A stretch of DNA of 28,037 nucleotides from positions 1 through 28,037 of the forward strand of contig CAWJBB010000047.1 of assembly GCA_963840855.1 (NCBI GenBank), read 5' to 3'. This DNA is from an uncultured delta proteobacterium. Its GTDB lineage: Bacteria; Desulfobacterota; Binatia; UBA9968. Shown piece by piece: positions 5,036 through 26,394 of this stretch. Made by a program: the position numbers and the translations under genes. Below the pieces are notes generated by a model that was not told where the DNA came from, ran no database searches, and saw nothing but the letters and a program-made list of their open reading frames with translations. Position 1 is the stretch's first letter. Each line of letters opens with the position of its first letter.

Positions 5036-6496
5036 ATGACTCGGAGCGGCGACGACTATGTGCGCGGCCTGCGCGATGGCCGCTCGGTACTGTTCGACGG
5101 CGAGCGCGTGGCCGACGTGACGACGCATCCGGCCTTCGCCGCCGGGATACGCACCGTCGCAGAGCTCTACGATCGCGCCCATGATCCGGCCAACCGCGAG
5201 CTGATGACTTACCCCTCGCCGCGCGACGGCCGGCCCATCAACAAGTGCTGGCTGGTGCCGCGGAGCCGCGCGGACTTGGCGGCGCGACGGCGCGCGATCA
5301 AGTTCTGGGCTGATGCCAGCTATGGCTTCCTGGGGCGCTCGCCTGATCATGTCGCGTCGTTTTTCGCGGGCTTCGCCGGCTCACCCGCGTTCTACGCACG
5401 AGGCGGGCAGCAGTTCGCCGACAATCTTTTGCGCTTCGCCGCCAGAGCCGCCGACGAGGATTTATATATCAGCTACGTCATTGTCCATCCCACCGTCGAC
5501 CGCGCCAAACCGGCGCACCAGCAGGCCGAGCCGTACCTCTACGCCGGCGCCGCCGCCGAGCGTGGCAACGGGATGGTCATTCGTGGGGCACAGATGCTCG
5601 GCACGGGCTCCGTGATGTCTGACTACGTGCTGCTCACGGTTATCTTGCCGCTGCGCCCGGGCGACGAAGACTACGCGATCTCCTGCGTGGTGCCGAATGG
5701 CGCGCCTGGCCTGAAGCTTTATCCGCGCCGGCCCTATGCGCTCGGACCCACTAGCGTGTTCGACTACCCGCTGTCCAGCCGCTTCGACGAGACCGATTCG
5801 CTGGTCGTGTTCGACAATGTCTTGGTGCCTTGGGAAGACGTGTTCATCTACAAGAATATTGACCTGACGGCCGGTCAGTTCAGCGTCACCGCGGCGCATG
5901 TGCTGGGCAACACCCAGTCGCATATCCGATCATGGGCCAAGCTGCAGTTCCTGGTAGGGCTGGTCAAGCGTTGCATGGACCTGAGCGGTCGCTCGGCCGC
6001 TAGCGACACAGTTGCCCAACTCGGCGACCTCGCCACCCGCGTCTCGCTCGTGGAGGGTATGATCCTCGGCGCCGAGGCCGCGGCGGAGCCCGACCAATTC
6101 GGTGTGATGCGCCCCAAGGATGCTCTGCTCTACGCCAGCCAGGTGTTCCAGCAGGCGATGTATCCGGCGCTGCTCAACCAGATCCGCGGGCTGATGGGCG
6201 GCAGCCTGATCCAGTTGCCAGCGACGGTGGGTGAGCTACGCGCGCCCGGCTCGGCGGCGGATATCGAGCGGTACGTGCGCTGGCCGCAAGCGGCGGGCCG
6301 CGAGCGGGTGAAGCTCTTGAAGCTCTTATGGGACGCTCTCGGCTCGGAGTTCGGCTCGCGGCATCTGCAGTACGAAATGTTCTACGCTGGCGAGCCCGCA
6401 GCCATTCAGGGGCGCGAGTTCCGCAACTTCGATTGGGCGGCTGCGGAGGCCTTGGTTGATCGTTGCCTGGCGAGCTACGACGCCGACACCGTGTAG
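5036..6496 (+). CDS. 4-hydroxyphenylacetate 3-hydroxylase family (HpaB-like) flavin-dependent monooxygenase, oxygenase component
   Basis: LRDGRSV..DGERVADVTTHPAF; GRSPDH; DYPLSSRFDETDSLVVFDNVLVPWE; GSEFGSRHLQYEMFYAG. Confidence 0.92.
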   Translation: MTRSGDDYVRGLRDGRSVLFDGERVADVTTHPAFAAGIRTVAELYDRAHDPANRELMTYPSPRDGRPINKCWLVPRSRADLAARRRAIKFWADASYGFLGRSPDHVASFFAGFAGSPAFYARGGQQFADNLLRFAARAADEDLYISYVIVHPTVDRAKPAHQQAEPYLYAGAAAERGNGMVIRGAQMLGTGSVMSDYVLLTVILPLRPGDEDYAISCVVPNGAPGLKLYPRRPYALGPTSVFDYPLSSRFDETDSLVVFDNVLVPWEDVFIYKNIDLTAGQFSVTAAHVLGNTQSHIRSWAKLQFLVGLVKRCMDLSGRSAASDTVAQLGDLATRVSLVEGMILGAEAAAEPDQFGVMRPKDALLYASQVFQQAMYPALLNQIRGLMGGSLIQLPATVGELRAPGSAADIERYVRWPQAAGRERVKLLKLLWDALGSEFGSRHLQYEMFYAGEPAAIQGREFRNFDWAAAEALVDRCLASYDADTV

Positions 6497-6498
6497 CG

Positions 6499-6662
6499 GC
6501 AGCTTGCTGCGGAGAAGTTCATTCTCCTTCGCCGAATACCTCGCAGCTTGCTGCGAGGATGAAGGTGAGGAGAACCCTCCGTAGCCTTGGCGAAGGAGGG
6601 TGGAAGGGCTTCGGAGAATTTTGCAAAGATACCTCGGAGCTTTGCTCCGAGGAGCTTCATTG
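6499..6662. repeat. Cluster of REP-like palindromes
   Basis: GCAGCTTGCTGC (6499-6510); CCTCGCAGC-TT-GCTGCGAGG (6539-6558); CCCTCC...GGAGGG hairpin (6575-6600); CCTCGGAGC-TTT-GCTCCGAGG (6632-6652). Confidence 0.75.
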
Positions 6663-6762
6663 AGAACAGGCAGGCCTGATTCCCGGCACGGAGTTGTTCT
6701 TTGTGTCGTAGTAATGAAATACTCCCGACAGGCGAAAGCGACTCAAATGAGGGGGAAGAACG

Positions 6763-7650
6763 ATGAAACGTGACCTTGTCGGTTATGGGAAAAATTTGCC
6801 CCAAGTGGAATGGCCTGGTGGCTGCCAAATTGCCGTCTCCCTGGTCGTCAACTACGAGGAGGGTTCCGAGCTCACCCCGGCGTACGGGGACAATAGACAC
6901 GAGACTAATGGGGAATTACCGTCTCGGAAACCTCCGGAGGCCCGCAGTCTTCAGACTGAGTCCCAATGGGAATATGGGGGACGAGCAGGTGTTTGGCGGT
7001 TGTTGCGCTTGTTCGAGGAGTACGAAGTTAAAGCAACCTTCTTCGCCTGTGCCATGGCATTAGAACAAAATCCGCCCCTTGGCCGCGAGATTATTGCCCG
7101 GGGCCACGATGTTTGCGGGCACGGGCTGCGTTGGGTTGAACAATGGCACCTCGACCGCGACAGCGAAAAGGAGAGCGTTCAAAAAGCCGTGGCTTCCATC
7201 GAGAAAACGACCGGTCGCAGGCCTCTGGGCTGGTTCACGAAATCCGGACCGAGCCTCAATACTCGAGAGCTTTTGGCGGAAGAGGGATTTCTGTACGATT
7301 GCGACGGTATAAACGACGATCTGCCCTATTACACGGAGGTGAAAGGGAAACCCTGGCTGGTGGTTCCTTATGCCTTTGACAGCAATGACGGAAAATATTG
7401 GCGCGGCGCTTGGAGTAATGGAGACCAATTCTTCGGTTATTTGAAGGATAGCTTTGACATGCTGTACAGGGAAGGCGCAACCCACCCTAAAATGTTGTCG
7501 GTAGGGTTGCACTCGCGCGTCTCGGGCCGTCCCGGGCGAGCGACAGCGGTGGCGCGATTCATCGAATATGCCAAAGGCTTTCCGAAGGTTTGGTTTGCCG
7601 GCCGGGACGAGATCGCCCGCTGGTGGCTGGAACAGCACCCGCCGGCGTGA
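6763..7650 (+). CDS. Polysaccharide deacetylase (CE4) family, PuuE allantoinase-like
   Basis: VSLVVNYEEG; EYGGRAGVWRLLRLF; HDVCGHGLRW; DDLPY; PKMLSVGLHSRVSGRPGR. Confidence 0.85.
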   Translation: MKRDLVGYGKNLPQVEWPGGCQIAVSLVVNYEEGSELTPAYGDNRHETNGELPSRKPPEARSLQTESQWEYGGRAGVWRLLRLFEEYEVKATFFACAMALEQNPPLGREIIARGHDVCGHGLRWVEQWHLDRDSEKESVQKAVASIEKTTGRRPLGWFTKSGPSLNTRELLAEEGFLYDCDGINDDLPYYTEVKGKPWLVVPYAFDSNDGKYWRGAWSNGDQFFGYLKDSFDMLYREGATHPKMLSVGLHSRVSGRPGRATAVARFIEYAKGFPKVWFAGRDEIARWWLEQHPPA

Positions 7651-20967: not shown

Positions 20968-21295
20968 GGTTTTCGCAGATAAACATTGCAAAAGGCCTTA
21001 AACTTACGGCACGGAATAGGTTGGGCTGGATGCACTCTCCATTCACGGCACCGGCGCGACGCTCAGCGACACGATAACACCGCCGCTTGTCGGCCTCCTG
21101 CTGGCAAACCTTTCGTGGCAGACTGCCGCGCAAGTGCAATGATTCCCGACCTCCGAAAAGCGGCAGGCCGGTAGAAAATCGCAATGTCTCATCGCACGAT
21201 CTCTCAGCGTGCTCAAATAGCGAAGGAGCTTGGCATTTGAAAGAAATGCCGGAATCGCGCAATCTTGAGCAAAAAGACGGAACGGATTACGTGGC

Positions 21296-21324
21296 TGGAC
21301 ATGTGACCTATATAGGACTATAAA
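21296..21324 (+). promoter_or_regulatory. Putative leaderless promoter with a palindromic operator for the Phd antitoxin
   Basis: TGGACA-N17-TATAAA ends 6 nt before ATG 21331 and there is no SD sequence. A perfect palindrome CCTATATAGG (21307-21316) lies in the spacer. Confidence 0.55.
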
Positions 21325-21330
21325 CTTGCC

Positions 21331-21584
21331 ATGAAAATCGTTAACGTGGCCCTGCTGAAAGAAAAACTCAGTTACTATCTGAATCTCGTCAAGTCCGGCG
21401 AAGAAATCGTTGTGACCTCGCATCGGCACCGTGTCGCGCGCATTCTCCCCGCGACCGATCCCTCGGCTGAAATCGTAGAACCTACTCGCCCGGTCAATGA
21501 CCTACGGAAAATAAAGGGCATCAAGGGAGACGTTCGGTGTCCGGGGTGAAGTCACTTTTAGACGACCGCCGGCGCCGAAGATAG
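21331..21584 (+). CDS. Phd/YefM family antitoxin (prevent-host-death), orphan; probable C-terminal frameshift
   Basis: MKIVNVALLKEKLSYYLNLVKSGEEIVVTSHRHRVARILP is a classic Phd N-terminus. As read it stops at 21549. Adding one G at AAGGGA (~21525) gives KGIKGRRSVSGVKSLLDDRRRRR* ending at 21584. Confidence 0.8.
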
Positions 21585-21688
21585 ATCATCCCGACCCCAT
21601 ATCGTCCCATAACCTTTGGATGTCGGATTTCCGTCGTTAATTGAAGCGATTGTGAGACAGCGATAGTCTCAAAATCGAAGTGAAGATC

Positions 21689-21868
21689 ATGAAAGCGAGA
21701 CGCAAAAGAAGGGACCCGGAAGTGGTACTGCGGGGAGGAAAGCCGACCGCCGTCATTCTGAGCATCGAAAATGACCAGATCTTCTCGAACGGTGGAAGAG
21801 CAGAAACTCAAGGATGCTCAGCGCGATACGAAGAGGCCATTGAAATTCGCAGCTTTGAAGCACCGTGA
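21689..21868 (+). pseudogene. Degenerate Phd-like type II antitoxin
   Basis: MKARRKRRDPEVVLRGGKPTAVILSIE matches the GKPxAVxxxxE pattern. Shifted frames then give 'DLLER' and 'KRPLKF' fragments, implying several indels. No toxin follows. Confidence 0.5.
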
Positions 21869-21962
21869 ACGCTTGGAACATTCCGATTCCGACTGTTGCC
21901 TCGGGCGATATCTCAATTCAACATTTGGCTCATGTCGAGCATTTAGATTTGCAATTCTGACT

Positions 21963-21983
21963 TTGAACTCTTGAACCTTGAAC
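21963..21983. repeat. Short TTGAAC tandem motif (x3), REP-like
   Basis: TTGAACTCTTGAACCTTGAAC. Confidence 0.5.
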
Positions 21984-22155
21984 CAGCGAAGCCTTGATTG
22001 CCTCATGGCCCACGCCTGTTGATGGATCGACGAATTCCCGGTGTCGCGGAATCCGGCCTGGAGTAGTGCTGCGAAATGCGTTAGCAATTGCCGTAGTGCT
22101 CGGCAAGGAAGATGGTTCAGAAGGATTTTAGATCCAATAGAAGAGCAATAAACGT

Positions 22156-23637
22156 ATGGAGAAACTACTCAAACTAATCTACGACCACGACCTATCAACG
22201 TGGAGCGAGAAAGCAGACGAGGCTTTCAACGAATTGTTCGGAGGCTCGACCGGTCGATACCCAGAGCGGGCTAGGCACGCAGTGCAAATTCGTGCCCCCA
22301 AATTTACTGATGAGAACAATGTTCCGTTCTCCACACTGATAGAACCATCAAATCCAAAGTCGGGACCTTACGGTGGTATGAGTGTCGGTATCTTTCCTGT
22401 AGAAGGTGAGCCCTGTTTAATCACACTCGGAACTGGGACAACCGGCTTGCATCCTGATGAAACTATTCTTGCGAGGCCCGGTCATGCCAGGAAGGCTCAG
22501 GCTATCTGTGAAGCGATCAATCGGCGTGAGAAACGTTTTGCGGCGTGGGCAAAACATGACCCGACACGCACCGACTTGGCAGTGCCTGAAAATGTTGCAA
22601 GTCACTTTGAACCATACGCTGCTCCCCTGAAGCGCTACGGCAAAGACGTTCACGCAATTTATTGTCCAAATCCAGATCGTGCAGCGACAGAGTTCGTACT
22701 GAAAGCATTCCTGGATCTCTATTTTGAGGAACGTGGCTTTGCTCCGCTGAAATCGCAATTGGACAATTACGAGATAATTCGGGCCGAATACTTCCAGTGT
22801 CTAATGCCAGACATCACAACACGCGAAGCAGCGGAACTTCTTTCCGAAAGGGCCTTTGTTGTGCTCGAAGGCCCACCGGGAACGGGCAAGACACGCATGG
22901 CTCTGGAATTGTTGCAGGACCATTATCATGGCCGTGGGCAATCAATTCAGTTTCATCCTAATACTACGTACGAGAATTTTATTGGCGGCTTGGCACCTTC
23001 AGCAACCGGTGGTGACGTGGGCTTTCGGTTCGTGCCAGTCATGGGTGAACTGATGAAAGCTGCCGCAGCAGCTGAAAAGGTTAAGCCCAATCCATACCTT
23101 CTGCACATAGACGAGATCAATCGGGCGGATCTTGCCAAAGTTCTTGGCGAGGCTGTTTTTCTCCTCGAGTATATGGAGGAAAAACCCCGTTCGATTAATC
23201 TGTCACACGATTTTGGTCCACCTTTTTTCAATAGGCTTACATTACCACCCAATCTCCATATTCTCGGAACCATGAATAGCGCTGACCGAAGTATTGCGAT
23301 TGTGGACATTGCCATTCGCCGGCGCTTTGCGTTTGTAAAGCTCTGGCCACAGTTTGCCGTAGTTCAAAATTGTGGGAGCAAGCTAGCTGAGGAGGCATTT
23401 AGACGTTTGCTCTCGATCTTTACGGAATATGCGTCTGATGATGCATTCACGCTAATGCCGGGCCATTCTTATTTCCTACCCAAAGATGGGCAAGACGCCA
23501 CAGCGCTAAAGTCCTTGCGCGTAAATTTGAATCCTCTTTTGGAAGAATATCTTGCGCAGGGCTACGTTACGAGCTTTTCGGATCACATCCGAGGCTACTG
23601 CCAGTGGGTGGAATCTCTAACGGCAGAATCCGAGTGA
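22156..23637 (+). CDS. mcrB: McrB family AAA+ GTPase subunit of a type IV modification-dependent restriction system
   Basis: Walker A GPPGTGKT; IQFHPNTTYENFIGG; Walker B IDEINRADLAKVLGE; McrB signature GTMNSADRSIA..D.AIRRRF; PGHSYF; PLLEEY. Confidence 0.93.
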   Translation: MEKLLKLIYDHDLSTWSEKADEAFNELFGGSTGRYPERARHAVQIRAPKFTDENNVPFSTLIEPSNPKSGPYGGMSVGIFPVEGEPCLITLGTGTTGLHPDETILARPGHARKAQAICEAINRREKRFAAWAKHDPTRTDLAVPENVASHFEPYAAPLKRYGKDVHAIYCPNPDRAATEFVLKAFLDLYFEERGFAPLKSQLDNYEIIRAEYFQCLMPDITTREAAELLSERAFVVLEGPPGTGKTRMALELLQDHYHGRGQSIQFHPNTTYENFIGGLAPSATGGDVGFRFVPVMGELMKAAAAAEKVKPNPYLLHIDEINRADLAKVLGEAVFLLEYMEEKPRSINLSHDFGPPFFNRLTLPPNLHILGTMNSADRSIAIVDIAIRRRFAFVKLWPQFAVVQNCGSKLAEEAFRRLLSIFTEYASDDAFTLMPGHSYFLPKDGQDATALKSLRVNLNPLLEEYLAQGYVTSFSDHIRGYCQWVESLTAESE

Positions 23638-25094
23638 GTCCAGATCTAAGACAACGACGCCGAACCCGACGATCAAACTCTCAATTTCGTCGGATTGAGC
23701 CAACTAAGCTTGAAGCAATTCCGCTCGATGACACATCGAGCACTCGTGTCAATGCCTCAGCAATCACGCGTGCGCACCTGAGTGATCCATCGCGCGAAGC
23801 ACAACTTGCGCACCATTTCATCCAGCAGAACGGACAGACGCTAGCGCAGTTCGGTATTGAGGCGCGAGTCGATTTTGACGGGCATCGTGTTTTCATTGTC
23901 TTTCAGGCGGGCTCACAAATCGGCGCATTTCCGTTAATCTCGCCTATTTCCGGAAAAGCAGAGGTGACGCTCATCGTCCGTCCTCGATTCGGCTGGTCGG
24001 GTTTGGGACGTACTTTAGGAGCCAGTGGTTTCAAGGTCGTTCCACAGATTCTATCACTCCCACTACTGCCGAAGACGGAGCGAGAAATTCCAGACTGGGT
24101 CCTTTCGGCAACAATCCTTCCGCGATTGAAGGCCATGCTTGATCAATTAGCGAGGCGCTTTGAGATCGTTGAAACCGTACGCGCGGCACCTCATGGACAG
24201 GTTAATTGGGGAAGTTACGTAACCGAGAAACTCCCTTTAATGAAGTTTCTCGATGTCCCGTGCCGCTATCCTGATCTCCGCAGCAATCGCGAATTGTACG
24301 CTGCCATCCACTACGTTCTTCGAAAACAACTCGCCTCGCTCGAATCACAACGCCATGCCGGAATGATCGTTATCGAACTAATGAAGATCTGCATGACACT
24401 TCTGCGCTTAGTCGAAGATGTGTCACCGATGCGACCTACACGCAAGCAATTGGATAGTTGGTTTCGAGTGCCGCTTGCTTCGAAATCTTTCGTCGATGGA
24501 TTAAACGCTATTACGTGGAGCACCGAAGAGACTGGCCTGGGAGGATTGACAGATTGGCGGGGGCTGCCATGGGCGATGTCGATGGAGCAATTTTTTGAGG
24601 CGTGGGTAGAAACAGTCTTTCAACGCTTCACAAGACGGTATGGAGGACTGCTTCGTGTCGGACGCCGCCGCGAAACCATTACTCCTATAGCTTGGGAACG
24701 TCCATTCTTGGGATCGCAGAAATTTCTTTTGCCTGATCTTGTTATTGCGCAGGAAGATCGCACGATCTTCGTCGATGCCAAATACAAAGACCACTGGGAA
24801 GCTCTACAGCATCAACGTTGGTCGAATCTGGAAAATGAACTCCGAGAGCGCCACCGTGATGATCTGTTGCAGGTTTTGGCCTACTCGACGCTTTCCGATA
24901 ACAAAGCCACCACAGTATGTCTGGCATATCCCTGTAATGTAGATACATGGGTATCACTTAAGGAGCGCGGGATGGTGAATAACAGGGCCGCCATCTATGC
25001 GGGTAAACGAAAGATCGATTTGGCTATGGTCGCTTTGCCAATGGGTGAGAAAGTTGACGAGTTGGTTACTCAGCTCGGGTCAGCTCTAGCATAG
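23634..25094 (+). CDS. mcrC: McrC family PD-(D/E)XK endonuclease subunit
   Basis: The GTG start overlaps the mcrB TGA (GTGA). It has HGQVNW (McrC 'G.I.W' region), MEQFFEAWV, LPDLVI...FVDAKYK catalytic motif and DLLQVLAY. Confidence 0.87.
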   Translation: MSPDLRQRRRTRRSNSQFRRIEPTKLEAIPLDDTSSTRVNASAITRAHLSDPSREAQLAHHFIQQNGQTLAQFGIEARVDFDGHRVFIVFQAGSQIGAFPLISPISGKAEVTLIVRPRFGWSGLGRTLGASGFKVVPQILSLPLLPKTEREIPDWVLSATILPRLKAMLDQLARRFEIVETVRAAPHGQVNWGSYVTEKLPLMKFLDVPCRYPDLRSNRELYAAIHYVLRKQLASLESQRHAGMIVIELMKICMTLLRLVEDVSPMRPTRKQLDSWFRVPLASKSFVDGLNAITWSTEETGLGGLTDWRGLPWAMSMEQFFEAWVETVFQRFTRRYGGLLRVGRRRETITPIAWERPFLGSQKFLLPDLVIAQEDRTIFVDAKYKDHWEALQHQRWSNLENELRERHRDDLLQVLAYSTLSDNKATTVCLAYPCNVDTWVSLKERGMVNNRAAIYAGKRKIDLAMVALPMGEKVDELVTQLGSALA

Positions 25095-25354
25095 TTAATC
25101 AAGGTACGGTGAAGTTTGTGCCTAATTTGTGCAGATCCGTTGTGAATCGGACGCGCTGTATATAGTTGACACGGGGTCAGGCTATTACGAGTTGACTAGG
25201 CAATGGCATTGGGCCTGGCATTACATTCTTATCAATCTTCGACCTCGTGCGCGTTAAATCCCAGGGAGAATCAATTTTAGATCTCGTAAAGGTCTCGCGC
25301 AGTTAGTTCATGCCCGACGCAGGTCGCCTTTAACTTTAATTGGGAGATCCAATA

Positions 25355-25394
25355 GTTCAAGCCGTTCAACCGCTGCGCTCCGTTCGAGTCGTTC
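25355..25394. repeat. GTTCAA/GTTCG REP-like repeat unit
   Basis: GTTCAAGCCGTTCAACCGCTGCGCTCCGTTCGAGTCGTTC contains four GTTC units. Confidence 0.55.
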
Positions 25395-25444
25395 GGGACT
25401 TTTAGGTTTCGAACCTGTGTAGCCGTATCGAGTTTTTCGTTATC

Positions 25445-25753
25445 CTATTTATCCGTGGCGCGTTCGCGCCAGTAATAAGGTCGTCGCTTTCCGTGGGCGA
25501 CAGCGAGAACTACCGCATCATCGCCGTGCAATTCATAGATTATCGAATAAGGAAATTTGCGAACGATGAGGCGCCGTCTTTGGTCATCAAACTTAGGCCA
25601 GCGCAGAGGATTCTGGGAAATTAGGCGGATGCCGCGATCGATTTCGCTTTCAAAGTTGGAAGCAATGGTTATTCCACGCGCATAGTACCAGGCAAAGGCT
25701 GCAGCATAATCTTCGGACGCACCGGGATGGAATACGACCTTAGCTGCGGCCAC
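25445..25753 (-). CDS. RelE/ParE family type II toxin
   Basis: VVFHPGASED...AFAWY...F..EI......I..NP..WP....RRLIVRKFPYSIIY......VVLAVAHGKRRPYYW is the ParE-like pattern. Confidence 0.9.
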   Translation of the reverse strand: MAAAKVVFHPGASEDYAAAFAWYYARGITIASNFESEIDRGIRLISQNPLRWPKFDDQRRRLIVRKFPYSIIYELHGDDAVVLAVAHGKRRPYYWRERATDK

Positions 25754-25979
25754 GAACTCGCTTTCTAGCCTGCGATTTTACTTCTGCCCAGGGAATAGGT
25801 CGGACGATACCTTCCTTGATCTCGCGAGAACGTCGTTCAACTTCTGCTGCCCACGCAGCGTCGACATTGTTGTCGGTGCCCGGCTCCAAGCTCGCTAATA
25901 GTTCTTCAACGATTTGAAGGCGATCGCTTTCGGCGAGTTTAATTGCGGCGTTGACGATTTCCTTCGCTGGTCGAGTCAT
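25740..25979 (-). CDS. Putative addiction module antitoxin (TIGR02574-type)
   Basis: AIKL.ESDR....EELLASL....VDAAWAAEVERR...I.EG.VRPIPWAEV. Overlaps the toxin start. Confidence 0.88.
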   Translation of the reverse strand: MTRPAKEIVNAAIKLAESDRLQIVEELLASLEPGTDNNVDAAWAAEVERRSREIKEGIVRPIPWAEVKSQARKRVRGRS

Positions 25980-26148
25980 TGTTCAATACCTCTGGGAGTA
26001 GATTTAATACAATGGGCCCCGCATGCGACCACCGGCTTGCGCACGCGGTTAAGAATAACCCTTGGCGCGATAAAAGATCAACCGTGGCAATTGCAGGGGC
26101 GCAGTCCGGGATCGAGGTGACCATATGAACGGTGGTAATAGGCCGCGC

Positions 26149-26394
26149 TCACCAAAGCTCGTTTCCGCTGGGCGGACCGAAATCAACTTCAGCGTGGAAG
26201 TTTTTCCGATTTACCTTCGCGAGAAGTTGCTTGAGAGAGAGTTTCTTTTTTCCAGCGGGTGTGGCGACAATCGTCCCGCCAGAAATCGTTATGTTCAGGA
26301 TCGATCCTTCCTTGATCTTGGCGTCTTTGGCCAGCGGCTTGGCGGGAATCCTTACAGTCAAGCTGTTGTCCCACTTTTGAACTCGAACATGCAT
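26149..26394 (-). CDS. AbrB/MazE family antitoxin, orphan
   Basis: VQKWDNSLTVRIP (KWGNSLAVRIP-like, with G changed to D); LSLKQLLAKV...NFHAEVDFGPPSGNELW is a MazE-type C-terminus. Confidence 0.88.
   Translation of the reverse strand: MHVRVQKWDNSLTVRIPAKPLAKDAKIKEGSILNITISGGTIVATPAGKKKLSLKQLLAKVNRKNFHAEVDFGPPSGNELW

Follow-up and report, generated by a model that had tools for sequence, protein, structure and literature searches.

Which DNA does a McrB protein read when its N-terminal domain matches no described family? The question is raised by a 28,037-nt stretch of an uncultured delta proteobacterium (Desulfobacterota, Binatia; assembly GCA_963840855.1, contig CAWJBB010000047.1, positions 1 to 28,037; hereafter the window), in which a mcrB homolog overlaps the start of a mcrC homolog (Table 1). 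A sequence-only reading of the window had proposed that the domain ahead of the McrB GTPase is a remote homolog of the 5-methylcytosine (5mC) reader of Escherichia coli McrB (McrB-N, DUF3578), with a remodelled base-flipping pocket that might serve to read a modification bulkier than, or different from, RmC. The interpretation that we favour, with some reserve, is a canonical GTP-driven McrBC system whose reader is a diverged, long-form DUF3578 domain, most likely one that flips a modified cytosine into a hydrophobic and aromatic pocket. The kind of reader is already known, and what is new here is a sequence variant of it.

Conservation and fold of the N-terminal domain

The GTPase part of the window McrB begins after approximately residue 205. 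Pfam AAA_5 matches residues 235-391 (3e-14) and the NCBIfam model NF008457 (McrB) matches residues 212-415 (4.3e-28), with a score far below the equivalog cut-off because the match covers the GTPase part only. BLASTP against E. coli K-12 McrB gives 2e-35 with 29% identity over 354 columns, and a profile of the family matches the PDB McrB chains 6ut6_A and 7vsr_A at approximately 2e-51 (6ut6_A, 2e-51). The protein carries a Walker A motif, a Walker B motif and the NxxD motif, the last as defined for McrB GTPases in the consulted sections of a McrBC census (PMC11090510), and the adjacent McrC homolog has a PD-(D/E)xK nuclease motif. Judged by these motifs, the pair is a McrBC type IV restriction system of the canonical NxxD branch. 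It is like EcoKMcrBC of E. coli in being a two-gene operon with mcrB first, in the three GTPase motifs and in the D...DAK motif of McrC; the window McrC is longer (496 aa versus 348 aa).

Ahead of the GTPase, the sequence-only reading had recognized a domain of approximately 195 aa, in agreement with the start of the GTPase matches in the open reading frame (ORF) and with an AlphaFold2 model in which residues 1-196 are ordered. The peptides that it quoted (VPFSTLIEPSNPKSGPYGGMSVGIFP, LITLGTGTT, HPDETILARPGHARK, VPENVASHF, LKRYGKDVHA and VLKAFLDLY) all occur in the ORF. Residues 1-205 have no match in Pfam (E<=1), PADLOC or NCBIfam. An exhaustive phmmer search of 1.84 billion cluster representatives returned 189 members of the N-domain family at E<=1e-3, with many fragments among them, and a word-indexed search returned 121 relatives at the same threshold, with AAA_5 annotated on 119 of the 120 listed. 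The domain has 22 invariant columns in an alignment of 45 sequences that reaches down to 40% identity. Across a larger alignment of 127 sequences, G70, G74, P81, G94, G97, D101, L105, R112, W131 and D187 are invariant, and Y72, S76, F80, T95, H110, K133 and Y161 are nearly so. With these relatives the domain is a conserved family and not a chance ORF, and it makes up a sequence family of its own that current family models miss. A Pfam scan of 45 members did not place PF12102, the DUF3578 model, among the 25 families listed of 63. The consulted sections of the census (PMC11090510), where DUF3578 is called 'ADAM', do not describe this subfamily.

The AlphaFold2 model, built from the 45-sequence alignment, has a mean predicted local distance difference test score (pLDDT) of 92.2 and a predicted template modelling score (pTM) of 0.90. 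It contains helices at residues 2-9, 16-25, 102-106, 108-125, 145-150, 152-164 and 175-192, and strands at 44-46, 59-62, 75-82, 85-93, 130-132 and 165-169. The elements given for E. coli McrB-N in the structural description of PMC3424535 are a1 (4-18), b1 (33-39), b2 (49-54), b3 (63-71), b4 (75-83), a2 (102-111), b5 (121-128) and a3 (134-153). Their order is common to both domains: the window model shows a1, b1-b2-b3-b4, b5 and the C-terminal a3 that make up the McrB-N fold, with extra elements after b4.

A shared order of elements could reflect a common alpha/beta arrangement only, in which case the domain might be a non-flipping binder of DNA or of another ligand, such as a sequence- or shape-specific module of the kind seen in some non-canonical McrB homologs. 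Several results argue against this. A structural search of the model with VIA-align ranked McrB-N first among 48,161 chains and covered 144 of its 154 residues. A genuine DUF3578 domain scores just 1.6 Z units higher against McrB-N and has the same top three matches (3ssc_A, 2a8e_A and 3mqz_A). In addition, the window domain occupies the equivalent position in the equivalent protein and operon as McrB-N, which is represented in the PDB by 3SSC/3SSD/3SSE, 6GCF and 8IK4, the last being an L68F mutant.

Profile comparisons point the same way. We aligned the 127-sequence family with 119 typical DUF3578 domains (from a set of 405 matches, 120 listed) using hhalign, and obtained a score of 24.4 (P = E = 0.0056) over 124 collinear columns (query 51-189, template 45-171). 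This score was reached by none of 150 block-shuffles of the template and none of 150 of the query (means 13.6 and 13.3, maxima 21.6 and 22.5, respectively), and the reversed template scored 14.2. The alignment pairs signature motifs, conserved columns falling on conserved columns: VP[FW], G73 with G62, S76 with P65, I79 with L68, F80 with Y69, G94-T95 with S83/T85 and W131 with W122. HMMER and BLASTP align E. coli McrB with the window protein beyond the GTPase and into the N-domain, as far back as window residue 143 (E. coli 98). A feature search of the ESM Atlas, independent of these alignments, gave PF12102 clusters as 28 of 30 matches (top score 0.93, 213 of 256 features in common), at a recognition value of 2098, which is below 2300.

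Against homology stand several results of the sequence searches. The hhalign probability versus typical DUF3578 is 6.6%, compared with 98.5% (E 2.5e-15) for the E. coli subfamily run as a control on the same template. Comparison of the family with single E. coli McrB-N, or with a 15-sequence E. coli subfamily, is not significant (probability 0.1-0.4%), and no sequence method reached conventional significance in linking the window domain to McrB-N or DUF3578. The window domain stays below the 25-bit gathering score of the PF12102 hidden Markov model (HMM), on which the positive controls E. coli McrB and the typical DUF3578 protein L002 score 28.8 and 173.6 bits. The model also has no match at E<=10 either in 20 short members of the family or in the 7.1-Mb host assembly, scanned in full and in six frames, and PF12102 is annotated on 0 of 120 listed relatives (precomputed Pfam column).

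Taking the structural rank, the order of elements, a profile match that is weak and above its null, and the embedding neighbours together, we regard the window domain as very probably a remote member of the McrB-N/DUF3578 superfamily, in line with what had been proposed, and its modelled structure as having the McrB-N fold. A non-flipping binder is improbable, and less likely than the altered specificity discussed below.

Other candidates for the fold were also considered. McrB proteins carry further types of N-terminal reader, including YTH (Thermococcus gammatolerans McrB), PUA-like/EVE and B3-like (LlaJI.R1) modules. These are like the window domain in being N-terminal specificity modules on a McrB GTPase. 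Neither Pfam nor the listed matches of three fold searches gave a PUA, EVE, YTH, SRA or B3-like fold for the window domain; this absence from the listed matches does not exclude those folds. Foldseek found no match of the model in the PDB at E<=1e-3. DUF1054 (PDB 2a8e and 3mqz) was rejected, as it is neither the best structural match nor an HMM match. We also rejected as noise a direct hhalign match of query residues 10-77 to E. coli 86-153, which is non-collinear and non-significant.

Two segments of the window domain, aa 16-46 (W..AF..LFG..RYP; 22201-22293) and aa 143-171 (VP..V...F....RYG; 22582-22668), both resemble E. coli McrB 96-124, which hhalign pairs with the former and HMMER and BLASTP pair with the latter. 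The rejected hhalign match may reflect a weak similarity between the two segments, which could be a repeat within the domain or a chance effect.

The segment after beta4 and the putative base pocket

The window domain has approximately 40 residues after b4 beyond E. coli McrB-N, and the sequence-only reading had taken them for an insertion. The extra segment relative to E. coli is real, and it is no novelty of the window protein. A model of a typical DUF3578 domain has a short helix (69-75, L002 numbering), a long helix (77-94) and a Trp segment (W101) at the equivalent place, and hhalign puts window helix 108-125 on the typical long helix and W131 (127/127) on the typical W122 (W in 116/119). 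Since typical DUF3578 domains also have both helices and the Trp, the segment is an ancestral feature and E. coli McrB-N stands apart in its family as a shortened form, having lost the long helix and the Trp strand. For the same reason the segment does not mark a new specificity.

Typical PF12102 proteins (L002, P0292-type; Vibrio, Shewanella and Pectobacterium) therefore share with the window family the secondary-structure plan, including the helices after b4 and the conserved Trp. They differ in their motifs: GNWANVPW, DGIYPVYLF and NQGTT there correspond to APKF..VPF, GGMSVGIF and GTGTTG in the window family, which has in addition the invariant residues P100-D101, P108-G109-H110, K133, D135-P136 and R138. 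AAA_5 is annotated on a minority of the listed typical proteins (precomputed Pfam column). What is peculiar to the window family is small: H99-P100-D101, P136-T137-R138, the invariant P108-G109-H110, and a helical stretch (143-164) that is longer.

In E. coli McrB-N, W49, Y64, L68 and Y117 line the 5mC pocket and Y41 fills the gap left by the flipped base, according to the account of base recognition in Sukackaite et al. 2012 (PMC3424535). The sequence-only reading had given these roles in the same way, and the E. coli strings that it cited (IPWFAFL, NGIYPVILY, LVLAYGISDT, IPKTIAEYF and PKKYGQSYYA) are all found in K-12 McrB (NC_000913). We derived the residue correspondence from the hhalign register chained via typical DUF3578, which is gap-free and identical in 7/7 settings from b2 to b4, and took column frequencies from the 127 sequences. 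W49 would then correspond to F58 (F in 106, Y in 20, W in 1), A59 to G70 (invariant), Y64 to M75 (M 72, L 30, F 13, T 10), P65 to S76 (S in 125/127), L68 to I79 (I 63, L 31, V 23, M 5), Y69 to F80 (F in 124/127), S83 to G94 (invariant, 127/127) and T85 to T95 (T in 125/127). The putative base-reading loop at G94-T95 is followed by a family-specific invariant P-D, and G94, G97 and D101 are each present in 127/127 sequences. A global alignment places Y41 on F50 (F 51, M 39, I 10) with low confidence.

Of the changes earlier read by eye, W49 to F is recovered in 7/7 hhalign settings. Those proposed for Y64 (to S) and L68 (to F) are each one residue off in all seven, the register giving M75 and I79 and pairing S76 and F80 with P65 and Y69. 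The by-eye register of beta3 (Y64 with S76, L68 with F80) was considered since S76, G78 and F80 would make one conserved strand face. It was rejected because the hhalign register pairs invariant columns (S76 with P65, F80 with Y69, A/G90 with A79, G92 with G81) and runs without a gap from beta2 to beta4.

For Y117, HMMER and BLASTP place R160-Y161-G162 on K116-Y117-G118 and A167 on A123. Y161 is Tyr in 126/127 sequences and lies four residues before b5, as does Y117 in E. coli. Its probable counterpart is therefore taken to be Y161, in preference to the V147 discussed below.

Compared with E. coli McrB-N, the window family appears to keep VP[W/F], aliphatic and aromatic residues at L68 and Y69, respectively, the Thr of T85 and probably the Y-G of 117-118. 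It lacks significant direct sequence similarity over the N-domain, has M/L in place of Y64 and F/Y in place of W49, and has a finger loop unrelated in sequence: FGYGN is replaced, as the sequence-only reading had noted. Y64 is invariant both in the E. coli family (15/15) and in typical DUF3578 (119/119); M, L, F or T stands at window position 75. On this correspondence, an aromatic wall, an aliphatic methyl contact, a base-edge Thr and probably a stacking Tyr would be kept in kind, with the loss of Tyr64 and the reduction of Trp49 to Phe amounting to a modest change and not to a rebuilt pocket. For the remodelled pocket of the earlier proposal this leaves the loss of Y64 and the change of W49 to Phe, and the argument is weakened by the hydrophobic and aromatic character that would persist.

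Proposed mechanism and target

By analogy with E. coli McrB-N, the concave face of the five-stranded sheet would meet DNA from the minor groove and a modified pyrimidine would be flipped out of the helix, the likeliest target being methylated or hydroxymethylated cytosine. The flipped base would lie in a pocket of F58, M75, I79 and probably Y161, and its Watson-Crick edge would be read by the G94-T95 loop. The GTPase ring, with its intact Walker A, Walker B and NxxD motifs, would then translocate DNA, and McrC, with its intact PD-(D/E)xK motif, would cut. What the data show is the gene pair, its intact motifs, the match in fold and the conservation of a family; homology to McrB-N, the flipping of a base, the residues assigned to the pocket and the modification targeted are what we infer for the window domain. 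The divergent reader leaves the view of how McrBC works unchanged.

Some points count against this interpretation. The pocket assignments come from sequence registers and not from residue-level superposition in three dimensions, and the counterpart of Y117 is ambiguous, hhalign via typical DUF3578 giving V147 (low confidence, with a gap inside b5). The family has invariant polar residues of its own without counterpart in E. coli McrB-N (D101, H110, K133, D135 and R138), and its recognition chemistry could therefore differ. Furthermore, in a Chthoniobacterales metagenome-assembled genome (MAG), a C5-cytosine methyltransferase gene (PF00145, 8.2e-20; L005:1350-2525, +) lies directly upstream of a McrB homolog 79% identical to that of the window, which would fit poorly with indiscriminate reading of 5mC.

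The last two of these points bear on the possibility, which we hold to be somewhat unlikely, that the McrB-N fold has been retained with pocket and loops retuned for a modification that is bulkier than RmC or otherwise different: 5-hydroxymethylcytosine (5hmC), glycosylated 5hmC, another hypermodified pyrimidine, or another sequence context. W49 to F58 and Y64 to M/L/F/T are both changes in kind that take away bulk, and the cavity could be larger as a result. A different finger loop, shorter by one residue in the global alignment, stands in place of the one with the intercalating Y41. The family-specific invariant residues follow the base-reading loop or lie in the helical region, and the methyltransferase beside the L005 relative would also suit a changed target. 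Against such retuning, the pairs L68~I79, Y69~F80, T85~T95 and probably Y117~Y161 are conservative, the two beta3 substitutions first proposed are not reproduced, and the segment after b4 is common to typical DUF3578.

A more specific version of the altered-specificity idea is that this is a soil-bacterial McrB subfamily that combines the ancestral long ADAM/DUF3578 form with Met/Leu for Y64, Phe for the Trp wall and its own invariant polar cluster beside the base-reading loop, and that could read a modification or sequence context beyond the reach of EcoKMcrBC, such as a 5-substituted pyrimidine of greater bulk. We rate this as unlikely; if true, it would be a new specificity class on the McrB-N scaffold.

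McrB reader domains set which phage and plasmid DNA is attacked by type IV systems, and few are understood structurally. Systems with the present reader are annotated merely as 'AAA family ATPase' because the N-domain family is invisible to Pfam, NCBIfam and PADLOC. The link to McrB-N/DUF3578 is useful for annotation and gives the family a testable model, in terms of pocket residues and modified DNAs. The family also offers epigenetic tools a natural supply of modified-cytosine readers with possibly altered properties.

Genomic setting and relatives

Table 1. Positions in the window of the mcrBC genes, their motifs and the surrounding island
Feature	Residues	Position	Strand	Description or basis
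Low-GC island		21001..26000	.	carries mcrBC and toxin-antitoxin genes; 1-kb GC windows
mcrB		22156..23637	+	uninterrupted ORF, 493 aa; McrB homolog with N-terminal reader domain and AAA+ GTPase
N-terminal reader domain	1-196	22156..22743	+	predicted divergent DUF3578/ADAM-like fold, without family model
V56-P57-F58	56-58	22321..22329	+	putative 'VPW' motif, E. coli I47-P48-W49 (pocket wall, phosphate clamp); hhalign 7/7 settings
beta3 segment M75-S76-V77-G78-I79-F80	75-80	22378..22395	+	putative match of E. coli Y64-P65-V66-I67-L68-Y69 (Y64 and L68 are methyl contacts)
Loop after beta4, G94-T95-T96-G97-L98-H99-P100-D101	94-101	22435..22458	+	putative match of E. coli S83-T85 loop (reads Watson-Crick edge)
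Helices and short strand with invariant W131	102-106, 108-125, 130-132	22459..22551	+	DSSP of models; segment earlier read as insertion
R160-Y161-G162	160-162	22633..22641	+	probable match of E. coli K116-Y117-G118 (Y117 stacks on flipped base); HMMER, BLASTP
Walker A GPPGTGKT	239-246	22870..22893	+	aligned with E. coli GPPGVGKT
Walker B region LLHIDEINRA	315-324	23098..23127	+	motif position and BLASTP versus E. coli McrB
NxxD McrB GTPase signature MNSADRS	373-379	23272..23292	+	aligned with E. coli MNTADRS
mcrC		23604..25094	+	496 aa McrC homolog; PF10117 McrBC, 5.7e-8
McrC PD-(D/E)xK nuclease motif D378...D391-A-K393	378-393	24726..24788	+	BLASTP versus E. coli McrC, D...VDAKY segments

The mcrC start overlaps the mcrB end by 34 nt, with an alternative GTG start at 23634. 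GC content is 0.50-0.52 over 21-26 kb, versus 0.575-0.597 in four 1-kb windows upstream and approximately 0.54 in two downstream. This island is flanked by metabolic and transport genes, whose products are a hydantoinase, two solute-binding proteins and a protein like ornithine cyclodeaminase.

The host assembly has one copy of the N-domain, and among 301 sampled genomes of the phylum the domain occurs in one, the host's own; PF12102 likewise occurs in one of the 301. An exact-peptide-pattern search from the single window protein, which finds close relatives only, recovered 10 MAG loci labelled delta proteobacterium (92%), Verrucomicrobiae/Chthoniobacterales (78-80%), Acidimicrobiia (57%) and Acidobacteriota groups (46-49%). 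mcrC lies downstream of mcrB in 9 of the 10. The remaining neighbours differ between loci, and many have a defence-like character (PIN, NERD, Mrr_cat, DUF2726, Fic and AAA_11/12 helicase domains), in a Pfam scan of 61 of 97 listed ORFs that left out McrB ORFs and distal ORFs.

The host assembly (94% complete, 8% contamination) gave no match to the C5-cytosine methyltransferase family PF00145 at E<=1e-5, which is compatible with a 5mC-directed system. It has four matches to PF01555 (N6/N4 DNA methyltransferase); the best of them (G000:C73:32187-33209, -) has six in-frame stops and is probably a pseudogene. The GC content of the island, the rarity of the domain, its scattered relatives, the variable neighbours and the methyltransferase content of the host fit a mobile, stand-alone type IV system.

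The McrB homolog is seemingly split into two ORFs in three of the 10 related loci (L006:6001-7475, L011:6001-7499 and L012:~6000-7374), and at L009:7443-9133 the downstream McrC homolog is split and adjoins an rve integrase. These could be pseudogenes or assembly errors. They would suit the idea that the window mcrBC is itself a decaying remnant without current function, which is very improbable: both window genes are uninterrupted with all catalytic motifs present, and the invariant columns of the N-domain indicate strong constraint.

In one 236-aa fragment of the N-domain family (P0255), the N-domain is followed by the beginning of an ASCH (PUA-like) domain (PF04266, E 0.0013, residues 206-231), perhaps an alternative fusion partner of this reader.

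The approximately 1.1 kb 5' of mcrB (21036-22155; GC 0.517) holds short minus-strand ORFs only, without Pfam match, and may be a decayed edge of the island or a promoter region. On the other side, the 25445-25979 (-) region contains a ParE-family toxin gene (PF05016, 3.3e-9) with a small overlapping upstream ORF that is antitoxin-like (25740-25979), and a MazE/AbrB-type antitoxin-like ORF without obvious toxin partner follows at 26149-26394 (-; PF04014, 1.1e-7). The ParE gene, its partner ORF and the MazE-like gene are located between mcrC and the ornithine cyclodeaminase-like gene.

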